From a virus: a stretch of DNA of 64,000 nt. Every line of letters starts with the position of its first letter. Position 1 is the first letter of the stretch. The stretch is taken from positions 123,645-187,644 of the IMG/VR virus record IMGVR_UViG_3300027741_000022, one strand, 5' to 3'. This document shows positions 46,155 through 61,328 of this stretch, piece after piece. Under the pieces are notes generated by a model. The model was not told the DNA's origin, searched no databases, and saw only the letters and a program-made list of their open reading frames with translations. Made by a program: the position numbers and the translations under genes.

Positions 46155-46562
46155 TCATTTTGGCTTAAACTTTAAGATAACTGGGTTGTCGGGATCTATT
46201 TTTGTATAAACTGATTTGACTTCTTCGATATCGAAATAAATAGCGTCTTTGATTATCCAAGCAGGAATAGGAAACACAGGAAGGCTAGTTTTATTGTTTT
46301 TAATGCTAGGAAGATATAATTCATTTTCATTTACAAAAACTACTTTGCTGGGTAGATTATCGTTGCCAATATCCAACTCCCAATATACACCAGAATAGCT
46401 AAATCCACTAGAGAATGCAAAGCAACGTTCTATATCTTTTATTTCAAAACCATAAGATAAAAGCAAAAGCGCTGTATCAAAGTGAGTGTCTGGAATCAAA
46501 CAATCAAACTCCATACTTTCGCCTGATGAGCCCTCTTTAAAATATAAACTTTTAGTTTTCAT
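46155..46562 (-). CDS. hypothetical protein
   Basis: 135-aa ORF in a - strand run. Confidence 0.7.
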   Translation of the reverse strand: MKTKSLYFKEGSSGESMEFDCLIPDTHFDTALLLLSYGFEIKDIERCFAFSSGFSYSGVYWELDIGNDNLPSKVVFVNENELYLPSIKNNKTSLPVFPIPAWIIKDAIYFDIEEVKSVYTKIDPDNPVILKFKPK

Positions 46563-46621: not shown

Positions 46622-46894
46622 TCATGGGCATGAAAAACAAATTGTCCATGTGCCTGGAAATGTTGATCCGCCACATCTAGGTCTTGGTGGGCAAGTTCCG
46701 TCCTCAATTGGACTTGCACAAGTACAATTATTGTAACTATCGCCTTCGCTAAAATTATCAAACCAAAAGTATCCTGTTCCTGGGTTATAAACGCATGTTG
46801 AAACTGCTTTTGCACAAGAGTTATCGCAAGCTCTCGCACTAGCACAATCTTTTGTTGCCAAATTACTATAGATTATATTGTCATCTTCATCCAT
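46622..46894 (-). CDS. IIYSN-leader Cys-rich protein 1 (10 Cys)
   Basis: MDEDDNIIYSNLATK + Cys-rich cargo. Confidence 0.8.
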   Translation of the reverse strand: MDEDDNIIYSNLATKDCASARACDNSCAKAVSTCVYNPGTGYFWFDNFSEGDSYNNCTCASPIEDGTCPPRPRCGGSTFPGTWTICFSCP

Positions 46895-46915
46895 AGACTT
46901 ATATAGCTATATGAA

Positions 46916-46953
46916 CAAAAAAACCCCCCATAGAATTAACTATGGGGGGTTTC
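46916..46953 (-). terminator. intrinsic terminator, - strand
   Basis: AACCCCCCATA/TATGGGGGGTT stem with T-tract on - strand, after the 46973 gene. Confidence 0.7.
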
Positions 46954-46972
46954 GTAACTAACCTTTATATTT

Positions 46973-47266
46973 TCAACGAACAGGCGTAAGGGTGGTACGC
47001 TTAACCTCTCGCTTGATCACCTTACCAAAAAGTGTCTTGCGGCAAGTCTTACGATCCTCAACCTTCTCATTATACACCTGAACCTTGCAGCAGCTATCAC
47101 AACCATCAGCAACACACTTGCTGCAATTGTCACAGCCATCACTGCTCTTGTTGCAGCAATTGCTAACGGCTGGAGCCTCAGTCTTGTTGACTAAAACACT
47201 TTGATACTCACCAGCGTTTGCTACACAACAAACACCCAAAACCATCCATGCACATAAAGTCTTCAT
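46973..47266 (-). CDS. secreted small Cys-rich protein
   Basis: Signal peptide MKTLCAWMVLGVCCVANA; CC..C..C..C...C..CC; basic C-terminus; AGGAG SD. Confidence 0.75.
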   Translation of the reverse strand: MKTLCAWMVLGVCCVANAGEYQSVLVNKTEAPAVSNCCNKSSDGCDNCSKCVADGCDSCCKVQVYNEKVEDRKTCRKTLFGKVIKREVKRTTLTPVR

Positions 47267-47385
47267 ATCTTCTCCTAATTAGATGATGCAACAATTTGCA
47301 TCACGGGAATCAGTATATCAGGATTTTTCTTTGAGTCAAGTCTGTTTTTGTTATAGAAAAGAAAATGGTAGGATACATAATCTAC

Positions 47386-47592
47386 ATGGAAGAAGTAGTT
47401 TACAGTAACGTTCAAGCAAAGAGTTGTAGCGGGACTTGCAATTATAACTGTAATGGCAGCACTTTTATATTTTCATCAAGTAATTGTAGTTCAGGCTGCT
47501 CTTGCGACATGGGTGATCCTTGGAGAGATGGTTGCAATGGCGGCGAATGTGTGGCACCACCAGAAAATAGTTGCTCAGTACCTTGTATTTAA
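47386..47592 (+). CDS. IIYSN-leader Cys-rich protein 2 (10 Cys)
   Basis: MEEVVYSNVQAK + SCSGTCNYNC... Confidence 0.85.
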   Translation: MEEVVYSNVQAKSCSGTCNYNCNGSTFIFSSSNCSSGCSCDMGDPWRDGCNGGECVAPPENSCSVPCI

Positions 47593-47603
47593 AACATAAA
47601 ACT

Positions 47604-47642
47604 ATGGAAGAAGAAATAGTTTACAGTAACGTTCAAGCAAAA
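47604..47642 (+). pseudogene. leader-only relic of the IIYSN family
   Basis: MEEEIVYSNVQAK followed by Cys-free, intergenic-like sequence. Confidence 0.6.
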
Positions 47643-47694
47643 ATTTTTAGTGTACAGCGCACTTATTTTTCAATAATTTTATCTACATACATCT

Positions 47695-48306
47695 ATGGAA
47701 GAAGAAATAATTTACAGCAATATTCAAGCAAAAGGTGGCTGGGAGTGTATGTGCTGCACAGGTCCAAGTGGCATCTCACCTTGCTTTGGTCTGCCCGGCG
47801 TTCCGGATATTAATTACGTGCCGTGTGTGTCGATAGTAGACAGGGGAGATATATATTACCAAGAATGTATGCAGGGATATGGTGATACTTATCCTACTAA
47901 AGCAGATTGTGTAGCCAGCTGTTATCCTGCTCCAACAGCTACACCTGGACCTACACCTACCACTACCCCTCCTTCAACTTCTTTTGTTGATCCGGGACTA
48001 AGACCTACACCTACCAAAACACCTACAGCTACACCTACAGCTACACCTACAGCTACACCCACACCTACACCCACACCTACTAAAACATCTGGACCTACGC
48101 CTACACCCACTAAAACACCTACGCCTACACCTACTAAAATACCATGCATTAATGACCCGACGCTAGTCCCACAAACTCAACCTTGCCTTACTTATTGTGC
48201 TTCGAATTATCATCCCGGTTGGGGTTTCACGTATGATCCTTTATGTGCAAATTGTTTTAATGATTTCTTGATAGACGGAAGTTGTTGCTGTCGATACAAC
48301 ATATAG
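47695..48306 (+). CDS. IIYSN-leader protein 3: two Cys-rich domains joined by a Pro/Thr linker
   Basis: MEEEIIYSNIQAK; (PT/TA)n low-complexity linker. Confidence 0.85.
   Translation: MEEEIIYSNIQAKGGWECMCCTGPSGISPCFGLPGVPDINYVPCVSIVDRGDIYYQECMQGYGDTYPTKADCVASCYPAPTATPGPTPTTTPPSTSFVDPGLRPTPTKTPTATPTATPTATPTPTPTPTKTSGPTPTPTKTPTPTPTKIPCINDPTLVPQTQPCLTYCASNYHPGWGFTYDPLCANCFNDFLIDGSCCCRYNI
47930..48140 (+). repeat. coding tandem repeat acacctaca/acacctac (PT, TA dipeptides)
   Basis: Repeated acacct/gctacacct units within protein 3. Confidence 0.8.
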
Positions 48307-48360
48307 GTTGAGTCATATCTTCTCAGTATAAAAATTCAACAGGATCGTCTACATAAAACT

Positions 48361-48552
48361 ATGGAAGAAGAAATAATTTACAGCAATATTCAAGCAAAAG
48401 GTTGCGGAACTAATTGTGGATGGGATTGCGTAGGTGGAATATTTACAACTTATGGAAACTGTGATACTTGCACTTGTACTTGCAGTTCTTATGAGCCTGG
48501 CGGACAGTGCTCTCCTGGTTATGATGACTCCTGTAGCGGCAGTTGCGCCTAA
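48361..48552 (+). CDS. IIYSN-leader Cys-rich protein 4 (10 Cys)
   Basis: MEEEIIYSNIQAK + GCGTNCGWDC... Confidence 0.85.
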   Translation: MEEEIIYSNIQAKGCGTNCGWDCVGGIFTTYGNCDTCTCTCSSYEPGGQCSPGYDDSCSGSCA

Positions 48553-48789
48553 ATGGCATATTCATGTGCTCGGGGACTGGATACTGAGCTACAACTAGGG
48601 ACGAAAATATATTTGAACGATAAAGTATTTATTATGAAAATCAGCGGGTTGACGCAAACCTTTGTGAATAAATGACTTAGAGCAAGAGAGAAAAAGACGT
48701 TTGACGTAAGTACTTTATTCACAATGGTTTAAGAATACTGGATATTGCAATGTGGTTATAAACAAAAAATGTATTGTTTATATAAAAAA

Positions 48790-49086
48790 CTAGTATGTGC
48801 AAAAACTCACTAGCCACTTGGCATAGTTTGAAGCGTCGCATGTCTCTGAGCTTGTTGGACAATCAAAAGAGGTGCAACTACAGCCTCCAGCATCACCAAA
48901 ATCTTGAGTCCATCTCCACAAATAATCATTTGATGTAATTGTTGTCGTAAGACACCTGCTTACCGTTCCACAATGCGATCCTGGCGGTAGAGTTAAATCG
49001 TGTGGCGTATCACTCCAATTAACAGGTTTTATACCGCACGTAAGAGTTTTGGTTTGAATATTGCTGTATATGATTTCATCACTCAT
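48790..49086 (-). CDS. IIYSN-leader Cys-rich protein 5
   Basis: MSDEIIYSNIQTK; start moved to ATG 49086. Confidence 0.8.
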   Translation of the reverse strand: MSDEIIYSNIQTKTLTCGIKPVNWSDTPHDLTLPPGSHCGTVSRCLTTTITSNDYLWRWTQDFGDAGGCSCTSFDCPTSSETCDASNYAKWLVSFCTY

Positions 49087-49133
49087 AATCTTATATATGC
49101 ACAAATATTATTTATTGATGTGTAGCTACTTAT

Positions 49134-49345
49134 ATGGATGAAATAGTCTACAGTAATCTAGCAGTAAAGAACACATGCACTAGTTCTAATTGTTGCACTT
49201 ACATGTGTGTTAGTGGATCATCAAGTAATTTAATTATTGGAATCTTACTGATTCTACTTGTGAGGCTCCATACACTTGTGTTGATCCTCTGAATGAACCC
49301 TGCAGCTCAAGTGACACCAAAATAATAAACTGTGTGCCGTCATAG
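49134..49345 (+). pseudogene. IIYSN-leader Cys-rich protein 6, frameshifted
   Basis: MDEIVYSNLAVKNTCTSSNCCTYMC... stops at 49292 in frame, while Cys-rich NYWNLTDSTCEAPYTC...NCVPS continues in another frame to TAG 49345 (1 nt missing near 49230). Confidence 0.7.
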
Positions 49346-49393
49346 ATTGTGTCTAAGTATAATTTTTTATTTATCACTCTGATAAATAAGATT

Positions 49394-49762
49394 ATGCTAC
49401 GCCAACTAAACTATCCTGAACTTGAATTATTTTGTTTAAAAATACGAAGGATAGCTTTTGAATCTACATTAAAAGTTAATGCTAAAAAGAAAAAGAAAAA
49501 GTTCACACCGCCAGCAGAAGAAGTTATTGAAAGCGTAATAACCTTAAAAGAAGTCAAAACACTTCTTATTGACGAGTTTAGTCTTGACACAACAGATGAA
49601 TATGTTGTGTTGGATAACGACGAAGCTGTTTGCGAATTGATGCTTGAGAGTGTGATCAGCAGATTAATTAACAACGAACTCAACATAATGGTTAATGAAG
49701 GCGTTCTGGAATGTTACTTCGACGATGATTCCAATGAATTTCTTTTTAAAATAAAGGAATAA
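49394..49762 (+). CDS. hypothetical protein
   Basis: ATAAATA upstream of ATG 49394; V.EG.LEC.FDD..N.F.F C-terminus. Confidence 0.7.
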   Translation: MLRQLNYPELELFCLKIRRIAFESTLKVNAKKKKKKFTPPAEEVIESVITLKEVKTLLIDEFSLDTTDEYVVLDNDEAVCELMLESVISRLINNELNIMVNEGVLECYFDDDSNEFLFKIKE

Positions 49763-49778
49763 CTTCTATACTAATTGT

Positions 49779-50057
49779 ATGGAAGAACTTATTTCTGAAT
49801 ATACCCGACTAATTTACATTCGCAAAGGCGGAGACTTAAAAGTATACGCCCAAGAACTTAAAAGATATTACAAGATACTAACAGTATTTAACGGAAACAG
49901 TGCTGTTCATTGCTTTGTTGATAAACACACCGGAGACGTTTATAAACCGGCTACATTTGTCAGCCCTTGTAAAAGCTCCAAGTATAATATTTTTGCGACA
50001 GAAAGTCGGGAATGTTTATTCAAAGAGTGCGAATATTCAGGGAAATATCTGCGATAA
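49779..50057 (+). CDS. conserved phage hypothetical protein
   Basis: Y.KI......AVHCFVD..TGDVYKPA....P.K..KYN. Confidence 0.7.
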   Translation: MEELISEYTRLIYIRKGGDLKVYAQELKRYYKILTVFNGNSAVHCFVDKHTGDVYKPATFVSPCKSSKYNIFATESRECLFKECEYSGKYLR

Positions 50058-50061
50058 TTTT

Positions 50062-50484
50062 TTATGGGCAACTTGGCGGGAATGTATAAGCTACATTCAA
50101 TCTATCGCAGTAATCACCTTCGGCAACCGGAGAATATAAGAACATCAAATGACGACAATCACCGTAGCCTGTTCCGTTATAACTCGACAAACTATTTTCA
50201 TTTAAGAATGTTTGTGAAAAACCGAATATATTTCCAATAGTATCACAACAAACAATCACATAAGTATAATCAAAGTCTGAACCAACCTCGGCTGCACTCA
50301 CTTCTGGGCAAGCTAGACCTGTGTTTCCAGCATCTACTTGTCCTGCATTATACTTCCAACAAGTGTTTGTAGGAGTTAATGTGCATAGATTTTGAGGAAC
50401 ACTATCGCAAGTGCCACCACCTCCACAAACTAATAAAGTATCACCCTTAGTCTGAATATTGCTGTATATAATTTCGTCGTCCAT
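50062..50484 (-). CDS. IIYSN-leader Cys-rich protein 7
   Basis: MDDEIIYSNIQTK. Confidence 0.8.
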   Translation of the reverse strand: MDDEIIYSNIQTKGDTLLVCGGGGTCDSVPQNLCTLTPTNTCWKYNAGQVDAGNTGLACPEVSAAEVGSDFDYTYVIVCCDTIGNIFGFSQTFLNENSLSSYNGTGYGDCRHLMFLYSPVAEGDYCDRLNVAYTFPPSCP

Positions 50485-50668
50485 GAAGATATATATACAG
50501 CAAGGATAATATCATGGAGGGTGTTATGAAAGAAAATGAAAAGCTGGGCGTGTGGCAAATGCTGTTGTGGTTGGAAAAAAACAAAATTTTTGTAAAAGAC
50601 GATGTTGCTAAAAAAAACATGTTTATCATTCACGAATATCAAACTAAATTAAAATTAAAAGAAAAACC

Positions 50669-52015
50669 ATGAACTTCTACCAACTCTACAATCTGATCAA
50701 TGAAAATGTCGAAGAGAACTTCGACAATTGGCTGAGCGTGTTGATTAAATATGCTAAAAATCCAAAAGAAAAAGATGTCGTTATTCGCTTTAAAACTTTT
50801 ACAGCCAAATCGGTTGCTGGCGTTGCTAATAACTCAGAAAGAAGAAGAATAATAATAGATGTTCTGAAAGAAAAGAATCTACAAAATCTCAATTGGTTTA
50901 GTTTTTGCGTAGGATATTGGAATAATAAAAATAACTTCAGAAAAGAAGATCTTGAGCTTGCTATCGATGTTACTAAAGGAATGATAGATAGCGGAGAAAT
51001 AACCAAATTAGAAATAGGCAGCAAGGGTTGGCTTGAAATAGGAATTGAATCCAAAGACAATATAGCAAAACATCTGGAGAAACAAAATCAACTTAGTAAT
51101 AGAGAAATTGAAAGAAGGAAAAAAAGAGGAGAAGCAGACTTAGACGAAGAATTTGTAAAGCTAGTGGTTCGGGAAGATAATGTCAAAATATACTATTTGC
51201 CAAGATTAAAAGCAGGAGGCTCAAATCTTTATGTGGATGAAGATGAAGAAGATGATTATGAAGATGAAAAAGTATCTCCGCACTGGATAAAAAAAAATAA
51301 ACAAAAAATAAACAAACGGCACCAAATATTGTGTAATCTTGGAAAAAACACCAAATGGTGTACTGCTCAACCAAGCTGGGACGCTCATGAAGGTTATATT
51401 ACTGATGATATCTATATTATACACGAAAATGATCAAGCAATATATCAGTTTGTAAGCTGTGCAAATAGCAATCCAGACGATAGACAATTTATGGACGTTA
51501 ACGATAATGATATTAAAAGTCTCGAACAACCGATGTTTGGGATATTGAATAAATATCTCAAAAGAGAAACAGGTTGTTATGACTTGAAAGAATTTTTAAC
51601 ATCTGTGGAAGGTATGGAGAATTTATCAGATATACATAATGTTGACTTTATATCAATAAACAGATTGTTTACCAGAAATAGTGGACAGTGGATCAAAAAA
51701 ATTAGTTCATATAAACCATTCCCAGAAAAGTGGGATAGTGAGATTAACACTGTTAAAAGTTATGATCTTATGGCAAAAACTTATGGTTTAGAACAAGAGA
51801 AAAAAAATGAAGAAAACATCCTTGTTCGAATATTTGAAAAGCTATTGAGTTTTATAGATGAAGGATTAAAACAAAACAGAAGTGTTAATCATATAATACA
51901 TACTTTTGAAAACAATTTCTATTCTTCTTTGGCATCTTTAAGCGAAGAAACCTTTGTCCGGCTAGAAGCAGAAATAGAAAAAAGAAAAAAAATAGAATAT
52001 GAGAACATGATATGA
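50669..52015 (+). CDS. putative head-packaged protein, group A paralog
   Basis: MNFYQLYNLINE; LCNLGKNTKWCTA...YQFVSC...QFMDV.DN. Confidence 0.8.
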   Translation: MNFYQLYNLINENVEENFDNWLSVLIKYAKNPKEKDVVIRFKTFTAKSVAGVANNSERRRIIIDVLKEKNLQNLNWFSFCVGYWNNKNNFRKEDLELAIDVTKGMIDSGEITKLEIGSKGWLEIGIESKDNIAKHLEKQNQLSNREIERRKKRGEADLDEEFVKLVVREDNVKIYYLPRLKAGGSNLYVDEDEEDDYEDEKVSPHWIKKNKQKINKRHQILCNLGKNTKWCTAQPSWDAHEGYITDDIYIIHENDQAIYQFVSCANSNPDDRQFMDVNDNDIKSLEQPMFGILNKYLKRETGCYDLKEFLTSVEGMENLSDIHNVDFISINRLFTRNSGQWIKKISSYKPFPEKWDSEINTVKSYDLMAKTYGLEQEKKNEENILVRIFEKLLSFIDEGLKQNRSVNHIIHTFENNFYSSLASLSEETFVRLEAEIEKRKKIEYENMI

Positions 52016-53496
52016 ACTTTTATGAATTTTACCAACTACTTAATGAAAACACAGTAAGCCAAGAGTTGAAGAAGAGACTGTCTCCAGAAAACTTAAAGTT
52101 GTTAATGGACTTGTTTTATAAACATAGTGAACATCTTAATTTAAGCAAAGCCAGCAAAGACTCACTGATAAAATGGTATATTCATATAAGTCCCTGGCAT
52201 AAAAACAGTATGCAAGTTAGCGCTTATCATGGAAATGATTTTTATGATTGGTGGGCACCATATAATGATTTTCTTGTTGGAATATCACAAAATAACAATG
52301 GAAATTTTCCCGCTTATATCACAAGCAAATTAAACAACCCCAATTTTACTGAGGGTGATTTTATGGCACTGGATCATGAGTACCATGAAAACTTAAAGAA
52401 AAAACAAAGAAATATTTCAGGAGCACCCGGCAAAAATATATTAAGTTTCCCAGATGGTTATAGTTGGGTAGATTTAGGGAAGGGTTATTGTGATATTGAA
52501 AGTAAGGCTATGGGACATTGTGGTAATGCAGGAGCAAAAAATGGTGATACTATTCTTAGTCTCAGAGATAATAAAAATATACCACATCTTACGTTCATAC
52601 TAAACAATGGTGTCTTGGGTGAAATGAAGGGTAGAAGCAATGACAAGCCAAGTAAGAAATATCATTCCCATATAATAGAACTGTTAAAGCTACCAATAAT
52701 AAAAAAAATAGCAGAAGATAGCGGATATTTACCGGAAAATAACTTTAAATTAAGTGACTTAACTCAAGAGCAAGCCAAAGAAGTAGTAAAGGTTAATAAA
52801 AACCTTGAAAAAGATTATCTCATGCTTATTGTTTCTGAGAACACTTGGAAAATTGATGATGATGAATACGGTGAGGCTTTGTATGAAATAATTAAAAAGC
52901 ATCCAGAAATTTTAGAACGATATGATTTAGTGTATAAAATTACAGAAAACGATAAAACACCCCCAGAAGTATTAAAAATTTTATTAGATAAAAAATATCC
53001 TGGGGCATCACAAAATATACAGGACAAACTTACCTTTACTATAAAACTTAACCTTATTGCTAATAAAAACACACCGAAAGAAGTTTTGGACGAATTGGCT
53101 ACTGAAGATGGAACAAATCCACAGCATTATTTAAGTATGATGAATCATTATAATCGATTTATTGGTAGTGGTAAAAATAAAATACCTAGCACTTATTTAA
53201 ACAAAGTAGCTCTTTATATTTTGAATATGCTAAGATATCCAAAATCTGATAATGATGAGTATGGTTTTCCACTACATATTCTCCAACATGTAGCAGAAAA
53301 TCCAAACACTAGTGTTGAAACTTTAAACAAAATTATTGAAAAAATCGAACTAGTGATAAAAGCGGATCTTATCAATGATAGAAAAGATCTTCTTGTGGGA
53401 GACCGCTTAATAGACCGCTTAATAGATAACAACAAAGTGCCAGAAGAAGTTAAAGCTGAATTGATGAAAAAAAGAAAAGAGTTTTACCCAAAGTAA
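52012..53496 (+). CDS. putative head-packaged protein with PcfJ-like domain
   Basis: MNFYEFYQLLNE; E.KAMGHCG...ILSLRD....PHLT.......EMKGR.N.KP. Confidence 0.75.
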   Translation: MNFYEFYQLLNENTVSQELKKRLSPENLKLLMDLFYKHSEHLNLSKASKDSLIKWYIHISPWHKNSMQVSAYHGNDFYDWWAPYNDFLVGISQNNNGNFPAYITSKLNNPNFTEGDFMALDHEYHENLKKKQRNISGAPGKNILSFPDGYSWVDLGKGYCDIESKAMGHCGNAGAKNGDTILSLRDNKNIPHLTFILNNGVLGEMKGRSNDKPSKKYHSHIIELLKLPIIKKIAEDSGYLPENNFKLSDLTQEQAKEVVKVNKNLEKDYLMLIVSENTWKIDDDEYGEALYEIIKKHPEILERYDLVYKITENDKTPPEVLKILLDKKYPGASQNIQDKLTFTIKLNLIANKNTPKEVLDELATEDGTNPQHYLSMMNHYNRFIGSGKNKIPSTYLNKVALYILNMLRYPKSDNDEYGFPLHILQHVAENPNTSVETLNKIIEKIELVIKADLINDRKDLLVGDRLIDRLIDNNKVPEEVKAELMKKRKEFYPK

Positions 53497-53551
53497 AATT
53501 AACATTAGACTGACTTCTGTGTATTTCTAGCTGAGCTTGCTTATATACTTT

Positions 53552-56023
53552 ATGAACTTTTACCAATGGCTTTTATTAAACGAAAACGTAGAAACAAACT
53601 TTGATAAGTGGTTAGAGACATTGTTTCAATATACCAAGAAAAATACTGAAGCCGAAAAAGTTTTAATGAAAATCCCAGGAGTTCCCGCAAGATCTGATCT
53701 TATAGGAGTTGACCCTAAAAATTGGGAAGCCGGAGGAAGAGAACAATTAGGTTATATTATTGACATACGGTCTGCCGTGATCATAAAAACAGTATTAAAA
53801 GAAAAAAATATTGAAAACTTTAATTGGTTTAGTTTTAGTATAGGTTACTACTCAGCTAAACCAGGTTTTTTCAAAGAAGATCTTGAATTAGCTATAGATG
53901 TAACAAAACAAAGAATAGACAGCAGAGAACTTCCTAAAACAGAAATTGGAGCCAAAGGGTGGCTAATAATAGGTTATGAGTCAAAGGACAAAGTTCAAGA
54001 ATATTTACAAAGCCACCAACAAGTTAGCAACCGCCAGATGGAGAAAATGAAAAAAAGTGGAATGTCTTTGGGAGAAAACGAAAATCTTATTAAATTGGCA
54101 GTCAATGAAGGTAACATAAAAATATATCACCTGCCCGCATTAATATCAGGAGGCTTCAAATTCCTGCCAGCTAATCAAGTCAAAGAAATCAAAGAAAGAC
54201 ATTTATTATTGTGCAAATATGGAAAAGGAACTGATTGGTGTACTGCACAACCTAGTTGGGATGCTCACACCGGCTATATTGGCGATACTATTTATATTGT
54301 TCATATAGGTGACAAGCCAGCTTATCAATTTGTAAGTTGTACAGATGGTCGTCACCAACAATTTATGGATACTCAGGATCAAAGCGTGAGAAAATTAAAC
54401 GGTGAAGTTTACGATGCGTTGGTAGCCAATTTAAACGATCAATTTAAATGCTATCAAATAAGAAGAAAAACAGGCTTAAAAGACTTATTGGAGCTAGATA
54501 GCAAAAAGAGAGAAGCAATTTATAACAATCTGAGTGAAGACGATTTTTTTGAATTAATTAGATTAGCAAACACGGAGCAAAAAAACAAAATATTAAAAGA
54601 TGATAAATTGAATTATTTGAAATTTACAAACTTCTCTAATAAGTTGAATGAAATTTTAACCATCACAAGAATAACAAATCTAAGTGAATTTGTGAGAAAT
54701 TTGTCAATACAATCTTTTACACCAAACCGTAATGTAGGAAACATGCCTACAATAAATCTTTCTGAGGATGAGGCTGAAAACTTTATAAACAATAATGTAA
54801 GTTTAATTGTTTGGAAATATTATCGTGAACTACGTTCGTGGTACGCTGATGGAAAAACGGGAGTAGGGAACAATTTGCTTCAAATTTTTGGAAAAGAAAA
54901 TGTTGAAAAAGAATATCCGGCATTAAAAATTATCAGACCAGAAGATTATTTTAAAGATACCTGGCACGCAGATGAAACTGGTAAAAAACCCAGAGTTAAT
55001 GATAGTACAGAAGGAAATGCGCCATCGATTGAAAGAATTTTAAGCTCTCGTGCTTTGTATGATGGTGATAAGACAATATCAAGAATAGAAGCAATGGAAA
55101 AAGTAGGTGTCGAGAATTTAAACTTCCAAAACACTCAAACATCTTTTATGCGTCGTATTTTGTTTGAGGGCAAAGACTTTGATAAAATTTTAAACTATTT
55201 CAAAGAAAAAAATCTCATCAAAAAAGTAGAAGAGTTTGTTGCAAATATGAATGAAATTGATATAAATCACATAACAGAGCGTTATTTTGAAGATGGATTG
55301 ACTGCTACAAACTTAAATGAATTTAGAAAACAAGATTTTTACAAAGTTTTAAAGTATTTACATGAAACAGGTAATGGTTTGGGTAATCTCATGAATAGAA
55401 GGGGAATCGATGGCATAATTAATGATTACGATAACTATAGCCGCTATCCAGAGACATCTGATGGTGTTCTTGAACAAGGTATTTTTGAAATTGTAGGAGA
55501 GGAAAACTTCAAAATTAGTTGGATCAATGACTTTAAAATTGCCAAAAAACTAATTTTCAACAATAAAACAGACTCAAAACTATTTAATTTTATAAAAAAC
55601 AAAGAAACTGTGGCAAAAGATCCAAGAAACAATAGTTATCATAAAGATAATTGGGAATGGCTTTTTGATGATGTCCCAGAAGGAGACACACACACCTTAG
55701 AGCTGCTAGACTTTGTGATTGAAAAAATGCCGGACAATGATAATTTGACAAAGGCTTTCTTAATTCATGGAAATTTAGACAAACGACTCATTGATAAGCA
55801 TGAAGACTTTACAAAAAGAATACTAGAAAAGTATGGAAAAGGTGTTGGAGAAGTAGATGCGAATGGAGTTTTTATATACAAACCCGAAACTAAATATGCC
55901 ACCTTTGTGATCGATCAAGAAAATATAAAGTATGCTTGGAAAAAATATCTGGGTATAACAATAAAAGATTTTAAAGATAAACAAGACAAATCAACTGAAG
56001 ATTTTGACCCAAATATATTATAA
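53552..56023 (+). CDS. putative head-packaged protein, group A paralog (long)
   Basis: Start moved to MNFYQWLLLNE; LCKYGKGTDWCTAQPSW...YQFVSC...QFMD. Confidence 0.8.
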   Translation: MNFYQWLLLNENVETNFDKWLETLFQYTKKNTEAEKVLMKIPGVPARSDLIGVDPKNWEAGGREQLGYIIDIRSAVIIKTVLKEKNIENFNWFSFSIGYYSAKPGFFKEDLELAIDVTKQRIDSRELPKTEIGAKGWLIIGYESKDKVQEYLQSHQQVSNRQMEKMKKSGMSLGENENLIKLAVNEGNIKIYHLPALISGGFKFLPANQVKEIKERHLLLCKYGKGTDWCTAQPSWDAHTGYIGDTIYIVHIGDKPAYQFVSCTDGRHQQFMDTQDQSVRKLNGEVYDALVANLNDQFKCYQIRRKTGLKDLLELDSKKREAIYNNLSEDDFFELIRLANTEQKNKILKDDKLNYLKFTNFSNKLNEILTITRITNLSEFVRNLSIQSFTPNRNVGNMPTINLSEDEAENFINNNVSLIVWKYYRELRSWYADGKTGVGNNLLQIFGKENVEKEYPALKIIRPEDYFKDTWHADETGKKPRVNDSTEGNAPSIERILSSRALYDGDKTISRIEAMEKVGVENLNFQNTQTSFMRRILFEGKDFDKILNYFKEKNLIKKVEEFVANMNEIDINHITERYFEDGLTATNLNEFRKQDFYKVLKYLHETGNGLGNLMNRRGIDGIINDYDNYSRYPETSDGVLEQGIFEIVGEENFKISWINDFKIAKKLIFNNKTDSKLFNFIKNKETVAKDPRNNSYHKDNWEWLFDDVPEGDTHTLELLDFVIEKMPDNDNLTKAFLIHGNLDKRLIDKHEDFTKRILEKYGKGVGEVDANGVFIYKPETKYATFVIDQENIKYAWKKYLGITIKDFKDKQDKSTEDFDPNIL

Positions 56024-56026
56024 ATA
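56019..56026 (+). promoter_or_regulatory. T4-like late promoter TATAAATA
   Basis: 5 nt before ATG 56032. Confidence 0.65.
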
Positions 56027-56031
56027 ATGCC

Positions 56032-57420
56032 ATGAACTTCTACCAACTCTACAATTTAATCAATGAATACGGACAGAGTTTAATACAAACTCTAATAGAA
56101 AAGTTCCAAAAAGAAGAACCAGCTTTAACTCCAATCATAATAAAAGATTATATTGATAGATTCGAAAGAATAAAGAACAACTTACCAGAAAAAGACATTA
56201 CCAAGTATAGTTGGAAAGATCTTGAAATCGCAGTAGACAGTTATCAACCAAAACAAAGAATAAAAGCAGGCATCATAGATCCAACTGTTACCGATGCTAA
56301 TTTATTGTATAACAGAGATGGAGTGAGAATATATCTTGGGCTGGACAAAAAAAGCTGCATAAAATACGGAAATGGATACTCTTTCTGCATAAGCTCCAGA
56401 GGTCATAACAACATGTATTCTCACTATCGGGTGAAAAAAAGAGGAACTCCATATTTTATATTTAATGATAATCTGCCAAAAACAAAAGAAAACCCAAATC
56501 ATGTTTTAGTATTATTTGTTTATGATATTCCACCTGATAGTTCATATATGACAAGAAACGAAAGCTCAAGATACACAATCACCAATGCGCTAAACAAAGG
56601 TGAAAAGTATTATAACGCTATAAATTATGTGGTTCGTGATTATCCTTGGCTAAAACCTATAACAAACTTTGTAGATGATGAAAACAAGGGAACTGTGGAC
56701 ATTGATCCTTTGGAAATGATAGAAAATCTTCTTTCTCACGAATTATCTGAAATGAAAGATTATGGTTTTTATCTTAGTGTCAATGCTGGTGGTCATATTG
56801 AAAATATTTTAAAGGAATTGTTTACAAACAGTAGTCCTCAAGAATATAAAGATTTTTTAGATAACAAAAGCGATGTTGCTTTCGTTAGTGTATTTAGCTC
56901 AGGTTATGGTTGGTATGACGATGCAGAAGATGATTTCATGTTATTTTACAAGAGCGCAGATGATATTTTAAAAGAACTCAAAGAAAGATCAACAAAATAT
57001 GTAGGAGAAGATTTTGAAATTGAAGGTTCTTACGAAAAAGTGAAGGAAGACATAATAAATTCATTAAAATTTAAGTTTAGCAATCCCGCCGATGCTTTAA
57101 AAAGACTAGACAATTTTGTTGTTGGAGAAGATGGTGTTTTTGGGGTTTTTGGGAAAAGCAGTTATCGGGACAGTTATTTTGTTAAAATATCTTCTCCAAG
57201 AGAATTTGTAGCCAATATTGTTGATAAAAACAAAGATGAATTAAACAAATTTAATGAATATAAACTCAAATACAATAAAGTTATCAGCTGGATTAAGAGC
57301 CAAAGTAAAGAAAAATTAAAAGAGATAGTGGATACTTATAATTCTGAGAGAACTCGCGAGCCTGGGTTTGCAAAAATAACAGCCGTTATTGATCTAATTA
57401 TTAGTTTTATGAATAAATAA
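56032..57420 (+). CDS. putative head-packaged protein, group B paralog 1
   Basis: MNFYQLYNLINEYGQSLI; KDITKYSWKDLE; YGNGYSFCIS. Confidence 0.8.
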   Translation: MNFYQLYNLINEYGQSLIQTLIEKFQKEEPALTPIIIKDYIDRFERIKNNLPEKDITKYSWKDLEIAVDSYQPKQRIKAGIIDPTVTDANLLYNRDGVRIYLGLDKKSCIKYGNGYSFCISSRGHNNMYSHYRVKKRGTPYFIFNDNLPKTKENPNHVLVLFVYDIPPDSSYMTRNESSRYTITNALNKGEKYYNAINYVVRDYPWLKPITNFVDDENKGTVDIDPLEMIENLLSHELSEMKDYGFYLSVNAGGHIENILKELFTNSSPQEYKDFLDNKSDVAFVSVFSSGYGWYDDAEDDFMLFYKSADDILKELKERSTKYVGEDFEIEGSYEKVKEDIINSLKFKFSNPADALKRLDNFVVGEDGVFGVFGKSSYRDSYFVKISSPREFVANIVDKNKDELNKFNEYKLKYNKVISWIKSQSKEKLKEIVDTYNSERTREPGFAKITAVIDLIISFMNK

Positions 57421-57423
57421 ACT

Positions 57424-58848
57424 ATGAACTTCTACCAATTATACAATTTAATCAACGAATATGGACAAAGTTTAATAGAAACTTTAATAGAGAAATTTCA
57501 GCAGGAAGTTCCAACACTAACTCCCACCATAATAAGAAACTACATTGATCGTTTTGATAGAATAAAGAACAATCTAACAGAAAAAGATATTACCAAATAC
57601 AGTTGGAAAGAGCTAGAAAATACAGTAGACGGTTATCAAACAAAAGACAGAATAAAAGCCGGTAAACTGGATCCAACCGTCAGTGATGCTAATTTATTGT
57701 ATAATCAAGACGGAACAAGAATTTACCTTGGTAAAGACAAAAAAAGCTGCATAAAATACGGAAACGGTTACACTTTTTGCATAAGTGCAAGAGGTGAAAA
57801 TAATATGTATGCACAGTATCGTATAAGAGACAAAGGAACTCCTTATTTTATATTTAACGATAAATTGCCAACAGAGGATAATCGGCATTTAATGGTGTTA
57901 TTTGTGTATCAGCATGGAACTGTACAATACGCAAAAAGATATTCTGTAACATTAGCTACTAATCAACCAGAAGATGAAAAAGAATACGGAACTTTAGCCG
58001 AAATAACAAATCTTTATCCTTGGACAAAACCACTAGAAAACTTTATAGATGATAAAACTAAAGGAACTGTGGATGTTGAACCAATTGAAATACTGGAAGA
58101 TTGGCTAACAGAAAGCTTTAATCACAAAAATTTTAAGTTAAGATTTAGTTTAAAAACCAAAGAAGATTTTGTTCTTCTTGATATTTTAAGCAAAGATGGT
58201 TTTCTAAAAAAATACGAGAAATTGAAAGATATTCTGAGTGATGAGAAAAAGAATTTAATTTATATGAGCATTACCAGAGGGTTTACAGATAAGCATAGGT
58301 ATCGATCTAGTGTGAATACTAATAAATTCGATGAGTATGAAACTTTAGAAAAATTAAAAGATGATATAATAAAAACAACAGAATTGATGAACAAAACAGT
58401 TGTTGAAGAAGGTGGCTATGAATATAAAGATAAAAAGGGCTTAGAAGAATATATTAGAACAAGTGCGGAAATTGAAGGCGTTTTCAATTCTTCTGTTAAT
58501 GATTTTAGTTTATTAAGATATCCAGAAGAAGCTTATGTTATGGGTAGCTCTCCCAGCAAGCGCAAAGATACTTTTGTCATAAGACTGTATGGCAAATATT
58601 ACATTCAACAAATTTTGAAAGAATCACTAGTGATAGAACCACTAGCCGCTTTAAATAAAGAATATTATTCAAATTTGAATTGGTTGAAACAAAGAACACC
58701 AGAAGAAACTAAGACTATGTTGGACGAAATCAACGAACTAAACGCAAAGGCTGATGCTGCTCACAATATTCATCTTTCAAATACAACAGAATTTAGAGGT
58801 TGGAAAATATTTGATGATGCTTTTAATAGCTTTAAGAAACTGTTTTAA
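57424..58848 (+). CDS. putative head-packaged protein, group B paralog 2
   Basis: Same N-terminal ~200 aa as paralog 1; divergent C-terminus; AATAAATA upstream. Confidence 0.8.
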   Translation: MNFYQLYNLINEYGQSLIETLIEKFQQEVPTLTPTIIRNYIDRFDRIKNNLTEKDITKYSWKELENTVDGYQTKDRIKAGKLDPTVSDANLLYNQDGTRIYLGKDKKSCIKYGNGYTFCISARGENNMYAQYRIRDKGTPYFIFNDKLPTEDNRHLMVLFVYQHGTVQYAKRYSVTLATNQPEDEKEYGTLAEITNLYPWTKPLENFIDDKTKGTVDVEPIEILEDWLTESFNHKNFKLRFSLKTKEDFVLLDILSKDGFLKKYEKLKDILSDEKKNLIYMSITRGFTDKHRYRSSVNTNKFDEYETLEKLKDDIIKTTELMNKTVVEEGGYEYKDKKGLEEYIRTSAEIEGVFNSSVNDFSLLRYPEEAYVMGSSPSKRKDTFVIRLYGKYYIQQILKESLVIEPLAALNKEYYSNLNWLKQRTPEETKTMLDEINELNAKADAAHNIHLSNTTEFRGWKIFDDAFNSFKKLF

Positions 58849-59015
58849 CTCTTGATAAGCTTGATAATATTTCGTGCTAAGCTGGCACCGCCTATAATTC
58901 GACCGTCTGTGTAGTCATCATAACCAAAGCCGCCTTTTTTGTTTTTCAGTGTCTGTTTATTTATTGCAGCTTCACATAGCTTGATTATCTCAGATAGTTT
59001 ATCTGGTTTGTTCAT
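58845..59015 (-). CDS. small hypothetical protein
   Basis: Fills the gap between paralogs; MNKPDK...YDDYTDGRIIGGASLAR; start uncertain. Confidence 0.5.
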   Translation of the reverse strand: MNKPDKLSEIIKLCEAAINKQTLKNKKGGFGYDDYTDGRIIGGASLARNIIKLIKS

Positions 59016-59068
59016 AAAATATAAACCGAACAAATATATTGTTGTTAACAGAATTATCCAAGCGTTTG

Positions 59069-59076
59069 TATAAATA
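59069..59076 (+). promoter_or_regulatory. T4-like late promoter TATAAATA
   Basis: 5 nt before ATG 59082. Confidence 0.65.
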
Positions 59077-59081
59077 AAACT

Positions 59082-60506
59082 ATGAACTTCTACCAACTCT
59101 ACAATTTACTTAACGAATACGGACAAAGTTTAATACAAACTTTAACCCAAAAGTTCCAAAAAGAAGTTCCAACACTAACTCCAACTATAATAAGAAACTA
59201 CATAGACCGTTTTGAAAGAATAAAGAATAACTTATCGGAAAAAGACATTACTAAATATAGTTGGAAAGATCTTGAAAATGCAGTAGACAGTTATCAACCA
59301 AAACAAAAGATAAAAGCAGGAATATTAGATCCCACAGTAACTGATGCTAATTTATTATACAACCAGAATAATGTGCGAATATATCTGGGTAAAGACAAAA
59401 AAAGCTGCATAAGATACGGAAATGGATACAGTTTCTGCATAAGCGCCAGAGGTGAAGATAATATGTATGGGCATTATAGAATAGCAAACAAAGGAACTCC
59501 ATACTTCGTATTTAATGATAACTTATCAAAAGATGACCCAGATCACGTTTTAGTGTTGTTTGTATACAATAAATACACTCTAAAATATATTATGCCGCGA
59601 TACACAATTACAAACGCACTAAACAAAGGTGAAAAGCCTTATGAAAATATATATCATATAATTAGTGAATATCCTTGGCTAAAGCCTATAACAAACTTTG
59701 TAGACGATGTAAACAAAGGAGACGTAAAGGCGGAACCATTAGAAGAAATAGAACATCGGCTTAAAAAAGAATGGTCAGCACTCAACTCGTTTGTTTTGAA
59801 TATGGGAGATGAATTTAACAATTTGGCAAAGAAAGGATTGTTACGGAGTTGGGGTGTGATAGATTTATTTGAAGAAAGTTCTGTTCAAGAAACGAAAGAC
59901 TTTTTAAACAATGATTCTGAAATCGCCAGTGTTTTTATGCGGTATGATGGTTATTCTCAGCTTCTTCCAAATAAGCATTTTTATACATTTTACAAAAACA
60001 ACACTGATGATATTTTGAAACAAATAAAAATCCACGCAAGTGAAGCTTTAGAAGAAGATTTTAAATATGAAAAATCTGATTCTGAACTTCAAGAAAAAAT
60101 AGCAAAAGCTTTAAAGTTTAAATTTAAAACAGCAGAGGGCTATTTTAATAATTATACAGGCGAAGGTGATGCGAACAAATATGATGATGGAGAAGCTGCC
60201 AATGTTAAATTTGAAATAGAAAGTAAATATCGCGAGTACTTTTTCGCTAAAGTTGTTAATATATCAAACTTTGTTCGCACAGATGAAAACTTAAAGAAAA
60301 TAGAAAACTTATCTAAATTTAAAATCAAACAAAACAAAATCTTGAATTGGCTAAAGATTCAAAGCAAAGAAACACTAGAGCGGATATTGCTTTATCGTTA
60401 TGAGCAAGAACGGTCTGGTGATGATGGATTTAGTGTGCCAATGGAATTAAAAATGACAACTAATCTGACTGACTTTATAGTGAAGTTTATGGAGATGTAT
60501 CCTTGA
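59082..60506 (+). CDS. putative head-packaged protein, group B paralog 3
   Basis: Same conserved N-terminal half; divergent C-terminus. Confidence 0.8.
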   Translation: MNFYQLYNLLNEYGQSLIQTLTQKFQKEVPTLTPTIIRNYIDRFERIKNNLSEKDITKYSWKDLENAVDSYQPKQKIKAGILDPTVTDANLLYNQNNVRIYLGKDKKSCIRYGNGYSFCISARGEDNMYGHYRIANKGTPYFVFNDNLSKDDPDHVLVLFVYNKYTLKYIMPRYTITNALNKGEKPYENIYHIISEYPWLKPITNFVDDVNKGDVKAEPLEEIEHRLKKEWSALNSFVLNMGDEFNNLAKKGLLRSWGVIDLFEESSVQETKDFLNNDSEIASVFMRYDGYSQLLPNKHFYTFYKNNTDDILKQIKIHASEALEEDFKYEKSDSELQEKIAKALKFKFKTAEGYFNNYTGEGDANKYDDGEAANVKFEIESKYREYFFAKVVNISNFVRTDENLKKIENLSKFKIKQNKILNWLKIQSKETLERILLYRYEQERSGDDGFSVPMELKMTTNLTDFIVKFMEMYP

Positions 60507-61016
60507 TGTTGGTTTGTGGGTTACTTGCCCAATAGAATATTAAAAGATGATTCTAGGTGGGTTCTAGACCCAATTTGAGGCAAAACACCATGTTCGTTAA
60601 AAGTGCCTGGATTTGTAGGGATTCGAAAGAAAAGTAAAATAAACAGAAAGTTAACAGAAAAGTTGGCTCTCGCCCGTCCTTTTAACCGCCTTTAAATCTA
60701 CATGGGTAGTTTCTCAGGGCTTTTTACATTTAATTAATACCAAACCTCACATTTTATTTAACTGCCCTTAAAACGCTCATTAGAGCCTTATACGGCATTT
60801 TACGATTAGCTAATTATTAATTCCGCTGATTATTAACAAAACCCCTCATAATCAGCTTACAAGCCCCTTAGAAATAAATTACAAACGTCTTGTGACCCCG
60901 GAGCGATGAACACAAGTATAGCTGTTTTTTGCAATTATTATTTTTCTATGAACATACGGTTTCACTGCAGATTGTCCCGGGTAATGTGTGCTTGGCACGG
61001 TACAATCATATTTCAC

Positions 61017-61328
61017 TCATATTGTTGATCCGCTTGCTACACACTCAATTGATCCGCCAATATATCCTGGTGGTCGGCTTGCATCTATCCAAGCTTGAGC
61101 TTCGCCTGATGTTGCATATCCACCAGATACAATACTTACAGCCCAATATTTAGCAGGACTACCATCTGTTCTAATTACAATTGGTAATGTGGGTACAGTG
61201 GTAAAATAAACAACCTCATAATTGGATCCCGCTACTACCCTATTATTAATTGATGTTCGTGCACTACAAACAACATAATAATCCAATCCGCTCTTACTCT
61301 GAACATTACTGTAAATTATTTCTTCCAT
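61017..61328 (-). CDS. IIYSN-leader protein 8 (Cys-poor cargo)
   Basis: MEEIIYSNVQSK; start moved to ATG 61328. Confidence 0.75.
   Translation of the reverse strand: MEEIIYSNVQSKSGLDYYVVCSARTSINNRVVAGSNYEVVYFTTVPTLPIVIRTDGSPAKYWAVSIVSGGYATSGEAQAWIDASRPPGYIGGSIECVASGSTI

Follow-up and report, generated by a model that had tools for sequence, protein, structure and literature searches.

The last 64 kb of a 187,644-bp linear virus record in IMG/VR (IMGVR_UViG_3300027741_000022, positions 123,645 to 187,644; CheckV completeness estimate 75%), referred to here as the window, carry a family of small genes whose products open with the same 13-residue leader, or tag, and then diverge into entirely different cargos. 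The leader, located through the open reading frame list and a six-frame motif search, follows the pattern M-(acidic)2-3-(I/V)(I/V)-Y-S-N-(I/V/L)-x-(A/T/S)-K. A degenerate DNA pattern for I/V-I/V-Y-S-N-x-x-x-K matches nine sites in the window, exactly the nine leader starts, and none in 100 dinucleotide-preserving shuffles; the other 124 kb of the contig contain no further copy, even with a relaxed motif. An earlier reading of this DNA, made from the sequence only, had proposed nine leader-plus-cargo genes at these starts. All nine leaders are found where it placed them, and seven of them head intact open reading frames of 63–203 residues (Table 1), but the copy at 47604 has no cargo and the copy at 49134 is probably decaying.

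The orphan leader at 47604 continues beyond its Lys out of frame through the promoter and start region of the next member, and the copy at 49134 is considered to be decaying because its hydrophobic tail is junk-like and the syntenic site in a relative retains only a 14-codon stump. The member at 46622..46894 has a terminator-like hairpin directly upstream, together with a TATATAAG motif. Cargos with ten Cys number four (46894, 47386, 48361, and 50484) rather than the three first counted, and the C-x3-C-x3-C spacing ascribed to two of them is indeed present at 47386 and 48361. The leader codons form part of a promoter-plus-leader DNA module of 50–71 nt, which occurs as direct and inverted repeats over 46.8–50.5 kb.

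Table 1. Leader copies in the window, with the reference copy of the repeated DNA module.
Feature	Coordinates	Strand	Relatives
Member, 90 residues; tag MDEDDNIIYSNLATK and 10-Cys cargo	46622..46894	-	
Member, 68 residues; tag MEEVVYSNVQAK and 10-Cys cargo (C-x3-C-x3-C)	47386..47592	+	Orthologues P0015, P0016, P0020
Orphan leader (MEEEIVYSNVQAK), no cargo	47604..47642	+	Same stump conserved in related contigs L068 and L112
Reference copy of the repeated DNA module, 50–71 nt (late-type TACATA motif, ATG, 13 leader codons)	47669..47739	+	
Member, 203 residues, 16 Cys; tag, Cys-rich domain, Pro-Thr linker of ~70 residues (47913-48152), second Cys-rich domain	47695..48306	+	
Member, 63 residues; tag MEEEIIYSNIQAK and 10-Cys cargo without Lys or Arg	48361..48552	+	
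Member, 98 residues, ATG at 49086, 8 Cys	48790..49086	-	L103 orthologue, 53% identity, dN/dS 0.14
Probably decaying member, 52 residues; tag MDEIVYSNLAVK, then hydrophobic tail	49134..49292	+	
Member, 140 residues, 10 Cys	50062..50484	-	All Cys invariant in 8 orthologues (67–81% identity)
Member, 103 residues, ATG at 61328; beta-rich cargo, only 2 Cys	61017..61328	-	Six orthologues, dN/dS 0.17–0.42

Conservation of the tag was judged from 46 distinct leader DNAs. Y, S, and K are invariant in 46/46 and N is kept in 45/46, with one further member outside this set that has K in place of N. Each invariant residue is encoded by both of its synonymous codons, and since the residues are fixed while the codons vary, selection acts on the tag as a peptide rather than on its RNA. 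The tag always stands at residue 1 and is found inside no protein. Its acidic N-terminus is followed by an alternation of hydrophobic and polar residues in which both faces are conserved, a layout that suggests a short beta-strand held in a groove. The residue after the tag Lys is usually small, although Pro is found there in several members, and in many the first Cys follows only 1–3 residues past the tag. With its acidic character, 13-residue length, and lack of a hydrophobic core, the tag does not have the features of a Sec, Tat, or lipoprotein signal, as the sequence-only reading had said of the Sec and Tat routes. Trypsin would release the intact tag, (M)EEEIIYSNIQAK and variants, as a peptide of its own, and lake metaproteomes could therefore show directly whether it is kept, lost, or modified.

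In most members a TA(C/T)ATAA(A/G) motif lies 3–4 nt before the ATG with no Shine-Dalgarno (SD) sequence, in agreement with the late-gene-like start signals reported initially; across the tag genes overall, a TATA-like motif is placed 2–5 nt before the ATG. The tag is also kept by three members in relatives whose TATA motif is replaced by an AAGGAG-type SD. The portal, subtilase, lectin-like, and alginate-lyase genes of the phage, like those of a second leader family (MNFY family, described below), show the layout of a TATA motif near the ATG without an SD, and late or structural genes genome-wide show a TATA-like motif 2–12 nt before the ATG and no SD (genome 13779 (-), 18275 (-), 5903 (-), 98798 (-)). 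AGGAG precedes the start of rIIA and other early-type genes. Because their start layout is the same as that of the portal, subtilase, lectin-like, and alginate-lyase genes, the tag genes are assigned to the late class, whose mRNAs are probably leaderless or have very short 5' ends.

Cargos and their turnover

A profile built from eight members matched 22 metagenome proteins, all orthologues of three cargos. On the contigs that encode them, which come from lake assemblies at ENA and freshwater metagenomes of JGI, numerous further tag genes are found whose cargos are of other kinds altogether, and one 20-kb stretch has at least ten tag genes. A leader-focused profile (A2) was then searched against 1.84 billion cluster representatives at E <= 1e-3 and returned 30 matches: 29 proteins of 37–144 residues that start with the tag, which in three lies slightly downstream of the called start, and one repeat protein matched by chance. 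Once similar cargos had been collapsed, about 41 cargo types less than 50% alike remained. The search of the genome and related contigs that the sequence-only reading had suggested yielded no extra copies in the contig and raised the family to about 41 cargo types. Its proposal of a modular leader-plus-cargo system is strengthened both by these mutually unalignable cargo types and by the amino-acid-level selection on the tag.

None of the cargos align with one another. Searches of Pfam, PHROGs, and NCBIfam gave no family for those of the window, in line with the initial statement that no named family has this leader, and PDB sequence searches returned only low-complexity or chance matches. An ESM Atlas feature search gave no usable match, and AlphaFold2 models of the 140- and 103-residue members, predicted from orthologue alignments, were unusable (pLDDT confidence scores of 41 and 40). 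The cargos range from 35 to 310 residues, and whole members reach 324; a relative's 324-residue member contains an FGE-sulfatase (C-type-lectin-like) domain (E 1.4e-19), which, with the Pro-Thr linkers present in several members, points to a binding or extracellular character. Orthologue pairs have ratios of nonsynonymous to synonymous substitution rates (dN/dS) of 0.14–0.63 and invariant Cys positions, which identifies the cargos as real, fairly fast-evolving proteins.

Two features of cargo composition are pronounced. Cys makes up 10.3% of cargo residues, compared with 1.7% in the long open reading frames of the phage, and its count is even in 39/41 cargo types (P about 4e-10), a pattern that fits intramolecular disulfides. 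Lys is depleted eight-fold (1.1% vs a background of 8.9%) in cargos that are acidic overall, and 23/41 have no Lys at all, where 0.23 would be expected, so that many of the proteins have no Lys but that of the tag. Two small Cys-rich proteins of the phage with Sec-type or lipoprotein-like signal peptides provide a comparison, one encoded inside the tag-gene cluster at 46973-47266 (-) and conserved at L013:12360-12644, the other at genome 68591 (+) (L004:14591). Both are Lys-rich (10/79 and 7/42), which makes the depletion specific to the tagged family. This depletion points to Lys13 as a working residue for cleavage, docking, or conjugation, and the frequent position of the tag Lys as sole Lys of its protein is the strongest clue to the function of the family.

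Turnover of the members can be followed at fixed positions, as syntenic sites across phages hold different cargos, stumps, or truncated copies. A relative carries at L009:18467-18763 (+) a 98-residue copy of the 140-residue cargo that lacks the tag and the first ~40 residues, likely a pseudogene that documents the decay of members. A 135-residue protein of no known family (window 46155-46562 (-)) is conserved beside tag genes in three phages (L009:17157-17564 and L013:8708-9115 in the relatives), in varying orientation and next to a tag gene with a different cargo in each. The same genomic sites gain, lose, and exchange cargos via the repeated promoter-plus-leader DNA module. A switch of the shufflon or invertase type was also considered, and was ruled out by the presence of a start signal and ATG of its own for every member.

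The phage, its relatives, and neighboring genes

The source genome is that of a large tailed phage. It encodes a T4-type portal (PF07230, Portal_T4; L001:11281-13779 (-)) with an intein splicing domain (PF14890) inside its N-terminal third, and both rIIA and rIIB. Many extracellular-type enzymes are carried as well: two alginate lyases (L001:1353-2465 (-) and L001:9454-10572 (-)) and a 1286-residue protein that joins a Peptidase_M43 domain with DUF642 (L002:655-4515 (+)) are found along with a ConA-like lectin protein and two FN3x5 proteins. By portal similarity the nearest public phage is LR756511.1, an uncultured phage of 595 kb with 50% portal identity, and IMG/VR contains relatives at 75% portal identity that measure 251–323 kb. 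As the latter are rated only 50–64% complete, the lineage is one of very large phages. The gp21-type prohead protease (PF03420) was identified in 5/6 relatives tested, among them every one of sufficient size for a judgment, and was not found in the present contig, incomplete at its 75% estimate, which probably places the head module in the unseen part of the genome.

DNA searches of the window against phage databases, in near and distant modes, gave no match, and a sequencing-run search placed the stretch in freshwater DNA runs only, with no RNA run listed. A scan of IMG/VR with the leader pattern returned chance matches only, possibly with records very near this genome left out, and the leader was not found in LR756511.1 or in four IMG/VR relatives; the family is therefore regarded as a young, lineage-restricted invention. 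Stop-codon recoding, considered in view of the sparseness of long open reading frames, was unsupported.

A second leader family is found in the same region. The sequence MNFYQLYNLINE(N/Y) or M(I/L)FKEWLLLNENIE opens eight proteins of 448–823 residues (window 43065, 50669, 52012, 53552, 56032, 57424, and 59082 (+); genome 29979 (L002:11979)); beside those that begin with MNFYQLYNLINE..., another of the family starts with MIFKEWLLLNENIE. Several of these genes have the same TATA-near-ATG start signal as the tag genes.

The radical SAM enzyme or thiol oxidoreductase once suggested as a co-occurring factor was not found: the contig has no radical SAM gene (LanC and YcaO were not searched), and neither an Erv/ALR sulfhydryl oxidase nor DsbA was found in it. 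It does encode an exported thioredoxin-fold protein of 142 residues with a signal peptide and a WCGYC motif, similar to DsbH and the gamma domain of DsbD (L135:1489-1917 (-), about genome 29465-29893), which has only 7 homologue clusters and was not found in tag-less relatives. Since this protein may serve the Sec-exported Cys-rich proteins instead of the tag family, its tie to the latter is only a lead.

Possible roles of the tag

The reading that we favor, though tentatively, is that the 13 residues serve all members as an N-terminal address tag. In this view the tag, probably a short beta-strand whose working residue is the invariant Lys, would link one common partner late in infection with a rapidly turning-over set of binding modules that are small, disulfide-bonded, and of extracellular type. 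We infer that this partner is a virion component, with Lys13 as its point of contact or reaction, and the most likely outcome would be a natural mixed display in which the virion bears these modules. The putative virion-anchoring role suggested by the sequence-only reading is compatible with the late-type signals, the Cys parity of disulfide type, and the binding-type cargos. A more elaborate form of the same proposal, natural phage display in which the tag Lys is docked, possibly covalently, in one virion acceptor and particles bear mixed, renewable, Lys-free, disulfide-knotted mini-binders captured by recombination at the promoter-plus-leader module, is rather unlikely. Several points weigh against the address-tag reading. 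The contig is a fragment (75% estimate) without the head module and gp21-type protease, and no partner for the tag was identified in its 187 kb. Tailed-phage virions assemble in the reducing cytoplasm, and disulfides would therefore form after lysis. The first Cys of many members lies so near the tag that little linker is left for display, the predictions for two cargos gave no usable structure (pLDDT about 40), and cleavage specific to Lys would fit the Lys depletion equally well.

Such cleavage is the basis of a rather unlikely alternative, in which a Lys-directed phage or host protease cuts after Lys13 of a pro-leader and lysis then sets free protease-resistant, disulfide-knotted peptides that would act in solution as inhibitors, toxins, receptor blockers, or signals. 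The invariant terminal Lys after (I/V/L)-x-(small) would make a plausible P4-P1 site for a subtilase, the usual small residue after Lys and the avoidance of Lys in cargos agree with this, and two S8 subtilases are encoded in the structural region (L001:17301-18275 (-) and L002:4539-6059 (+)). One of them adjoins the portal region, an intracellular type of 324 residues with an LLPY N-terminal motif like that of intracellular subtilisins. However, homologues of this 324-residue subtilase at >=58% identity form more than 2000 clusters, many of them located on contigs of very large size, and given a spread so much wider than that of the tag family it is not a dedicated leader peptidase. The Pro after Lys in several members would also be poor for most serine proteases, leader-dependent secretion would lack an export route, and a 13-residue pro-piece has no evident use on a cytoplasmic protein freed by lysis. 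Enzymatic conjugation, by a ligase, a transglutaminase, or an autocatalytic isopeptide reaction at the epsilon-amine of Lys13, would account for an invariant tag Lys that is so often alone, as Lys-free cargos would avoid off-target reaction. It is nevertheless improbable: searches for an AMP-binding/ANL ligase were negative in the 187-kb contig, with about a quarter of the genome unseen (PF00501 and PF14535 are absent, and ten contig proteins of 354–485 residues compared with Pfam include none), and among the neighbors of tag genes in relatives.

Loading of the small proteins into the prohead core, in the manner of the T4 capsid targeting sequence (CTS), for ejection with the DNA as anti-defense or takeover proteins is given an equally low probability. 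The T4-type portal, the gp21-type protease of relatives, and the possible passage of small compact proteins through the tail tube are in its favor, as is the precedent of the T4 internal proteins, a polymorphic set with only the 10-residue CTS in common (PMC9026906; PMC3012670), and of T4 hyperplastic regions, which like the tag-gene region are variable and contain repeated regulatory modules (PMC2839356). The tag, however, ends in Lys and has no L/I-x-E site, the MNFY...LINE family of the same region matches the CTS pattern much better, and acidic, Lys-poor, disulfide-type cargos with Pro-Thr linkers and a lectin-like domain have extracellular features, whereas the CTS-bearing proteins of T-even phages are described as basic (PMC9026906). 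It is very unlikely that the first 13 codons only accompany the late promoter, as a module that starts translation of leaderless or near-leaderless mRNAs, with no role for the peptide. The promoter-like motif 3–4 nt before the ATG without an SD, the repetition of the 50–71-nt module as a unit, and its A-rich codons would agree with this, but Y, S, N, and K are fixed while their codons vary, the three members with an AAGGAG-type SD keep the tag, and the N-termini of other late genes that carry this motif are unrelated. The least credible of the proposals is that of ribosomally synthesized and post-translationally modified peptide (RiPP)-like precursors, put forward by the sequence-only reading, with a modifying enzyme for the cores encoded at another place. 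There is a likeness to prochlorosin-type precursors, in that the leader is constant and the Cys/Ser/Thr-rich cores are hypervariable; still, the cargos, 35–310 residues long, include the FGE-sulfatase domain, a beta-rich domain with 2 Cys, and proteins of two domains joined by Pro-Thr linkers, the even Cys counts fit disulfides and not thioethers, and the leader has no GG or other known cleavage motif. RiPP recognition elements are, moreover, usually of roughly 20 residues or more, longer than this leader. With folded cargos in members of up to 324 residues, so short a leader, and the negative radical-SAM search described above, the RiPP reading is disfavored and largely refuted.

Comparison with known systems

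Prochlorosins combine a constant leader with a hypervariable Cys/Ser/Thr-rich remainder in many paralogues per genome. The tag family differs from such RiPPs in its far shorter leader, in folded domains within members of up to 324 residues, and in a Cys parity that fits disulfides. Peptide-tag/catcher isopeptide pairs and the Lys-Asn capsid crosslink of HK97 offer a resemblance only: like the tags of such pairs, this one is a predicted beta-strand of ~13 residues with conserved Lys and Asn on a cargo without competing Lys, but neither a catcher-type domain nor a catalytic partner was identified. If the address-tag reading is true, the family would supply a compact, natural 13-residue handle and ~40 tiny, Lys-free disulfide scaffolds, and would show large phages renewing a repertoire of binding proteins through cassette exchange.

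The exchange itself has a parallel in the mobile PeSL cassettes of T4-type hyperplastic regions, in which repeated regulatory DNA flanks non-essential variable open reading frames and recombination-driven insertion, deletion, and replacement have been proposed (PMC2839356). Short repeated DNA modules, orphan leaders, stumps, and site-specific cargo replacement are likewise found at the tag genes. PeSL repeats consist of early promoters and terminators and are non-coding, however, whereas the tag repeat comprises a late-type motif and 13 coding codons, and recombination therefore preserves a protein tag. For disulfides in a phage particle, a disulfide-dependent virion has been described in the freshwater phage Pam3 (PMC9942802).

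The closest precedent for the tag family is the T4 CTS, ten N-terminal residues that are the only feature common to the polymorphic internal proteins and are removed by gp21 at L/I-x-E (PMC9026906; PMC3012670); on IPI, IPII, and IPIII the sequence is MKTYQEFIAE (PMC8442874). Both are tags of ~10–13 residues at the extreme N-terminus that form the sole shared part of unrelated, fast-evolving small phage proteins, and both belong to genes in a variable region of phages with a T4-type portal. The present tag has no sequence similarity to the CTS, however, and ends in (A/T/S)-K, and its partly lectin-like or Pro-Thr-linked cargos contrast with the T-even proteins, described as basic (PMC9026906), so that, judged by cleavage motif and cargo character, membership in the T4 CTS class fails. 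The second leader family is much nearer to that class, as its pattern M-x-x-Y-Q-x-(F/Y)...(I/L)-N-E resembles the CTS together with its L/I-x-E site, and its proteins are candidates for a payload loaded into the head. This MNFYQLYNLINE... family may thus already fill the head-loading role, and because it fits the CTS so much better, the Lys-ended tag probably addresses another destination. Should it prove to be an address label, it would be a second example of the T4 CTS principle, unrelated in sequence and carried on disulfide-rich, extracellular-type modules that are unusual for tailed phages.

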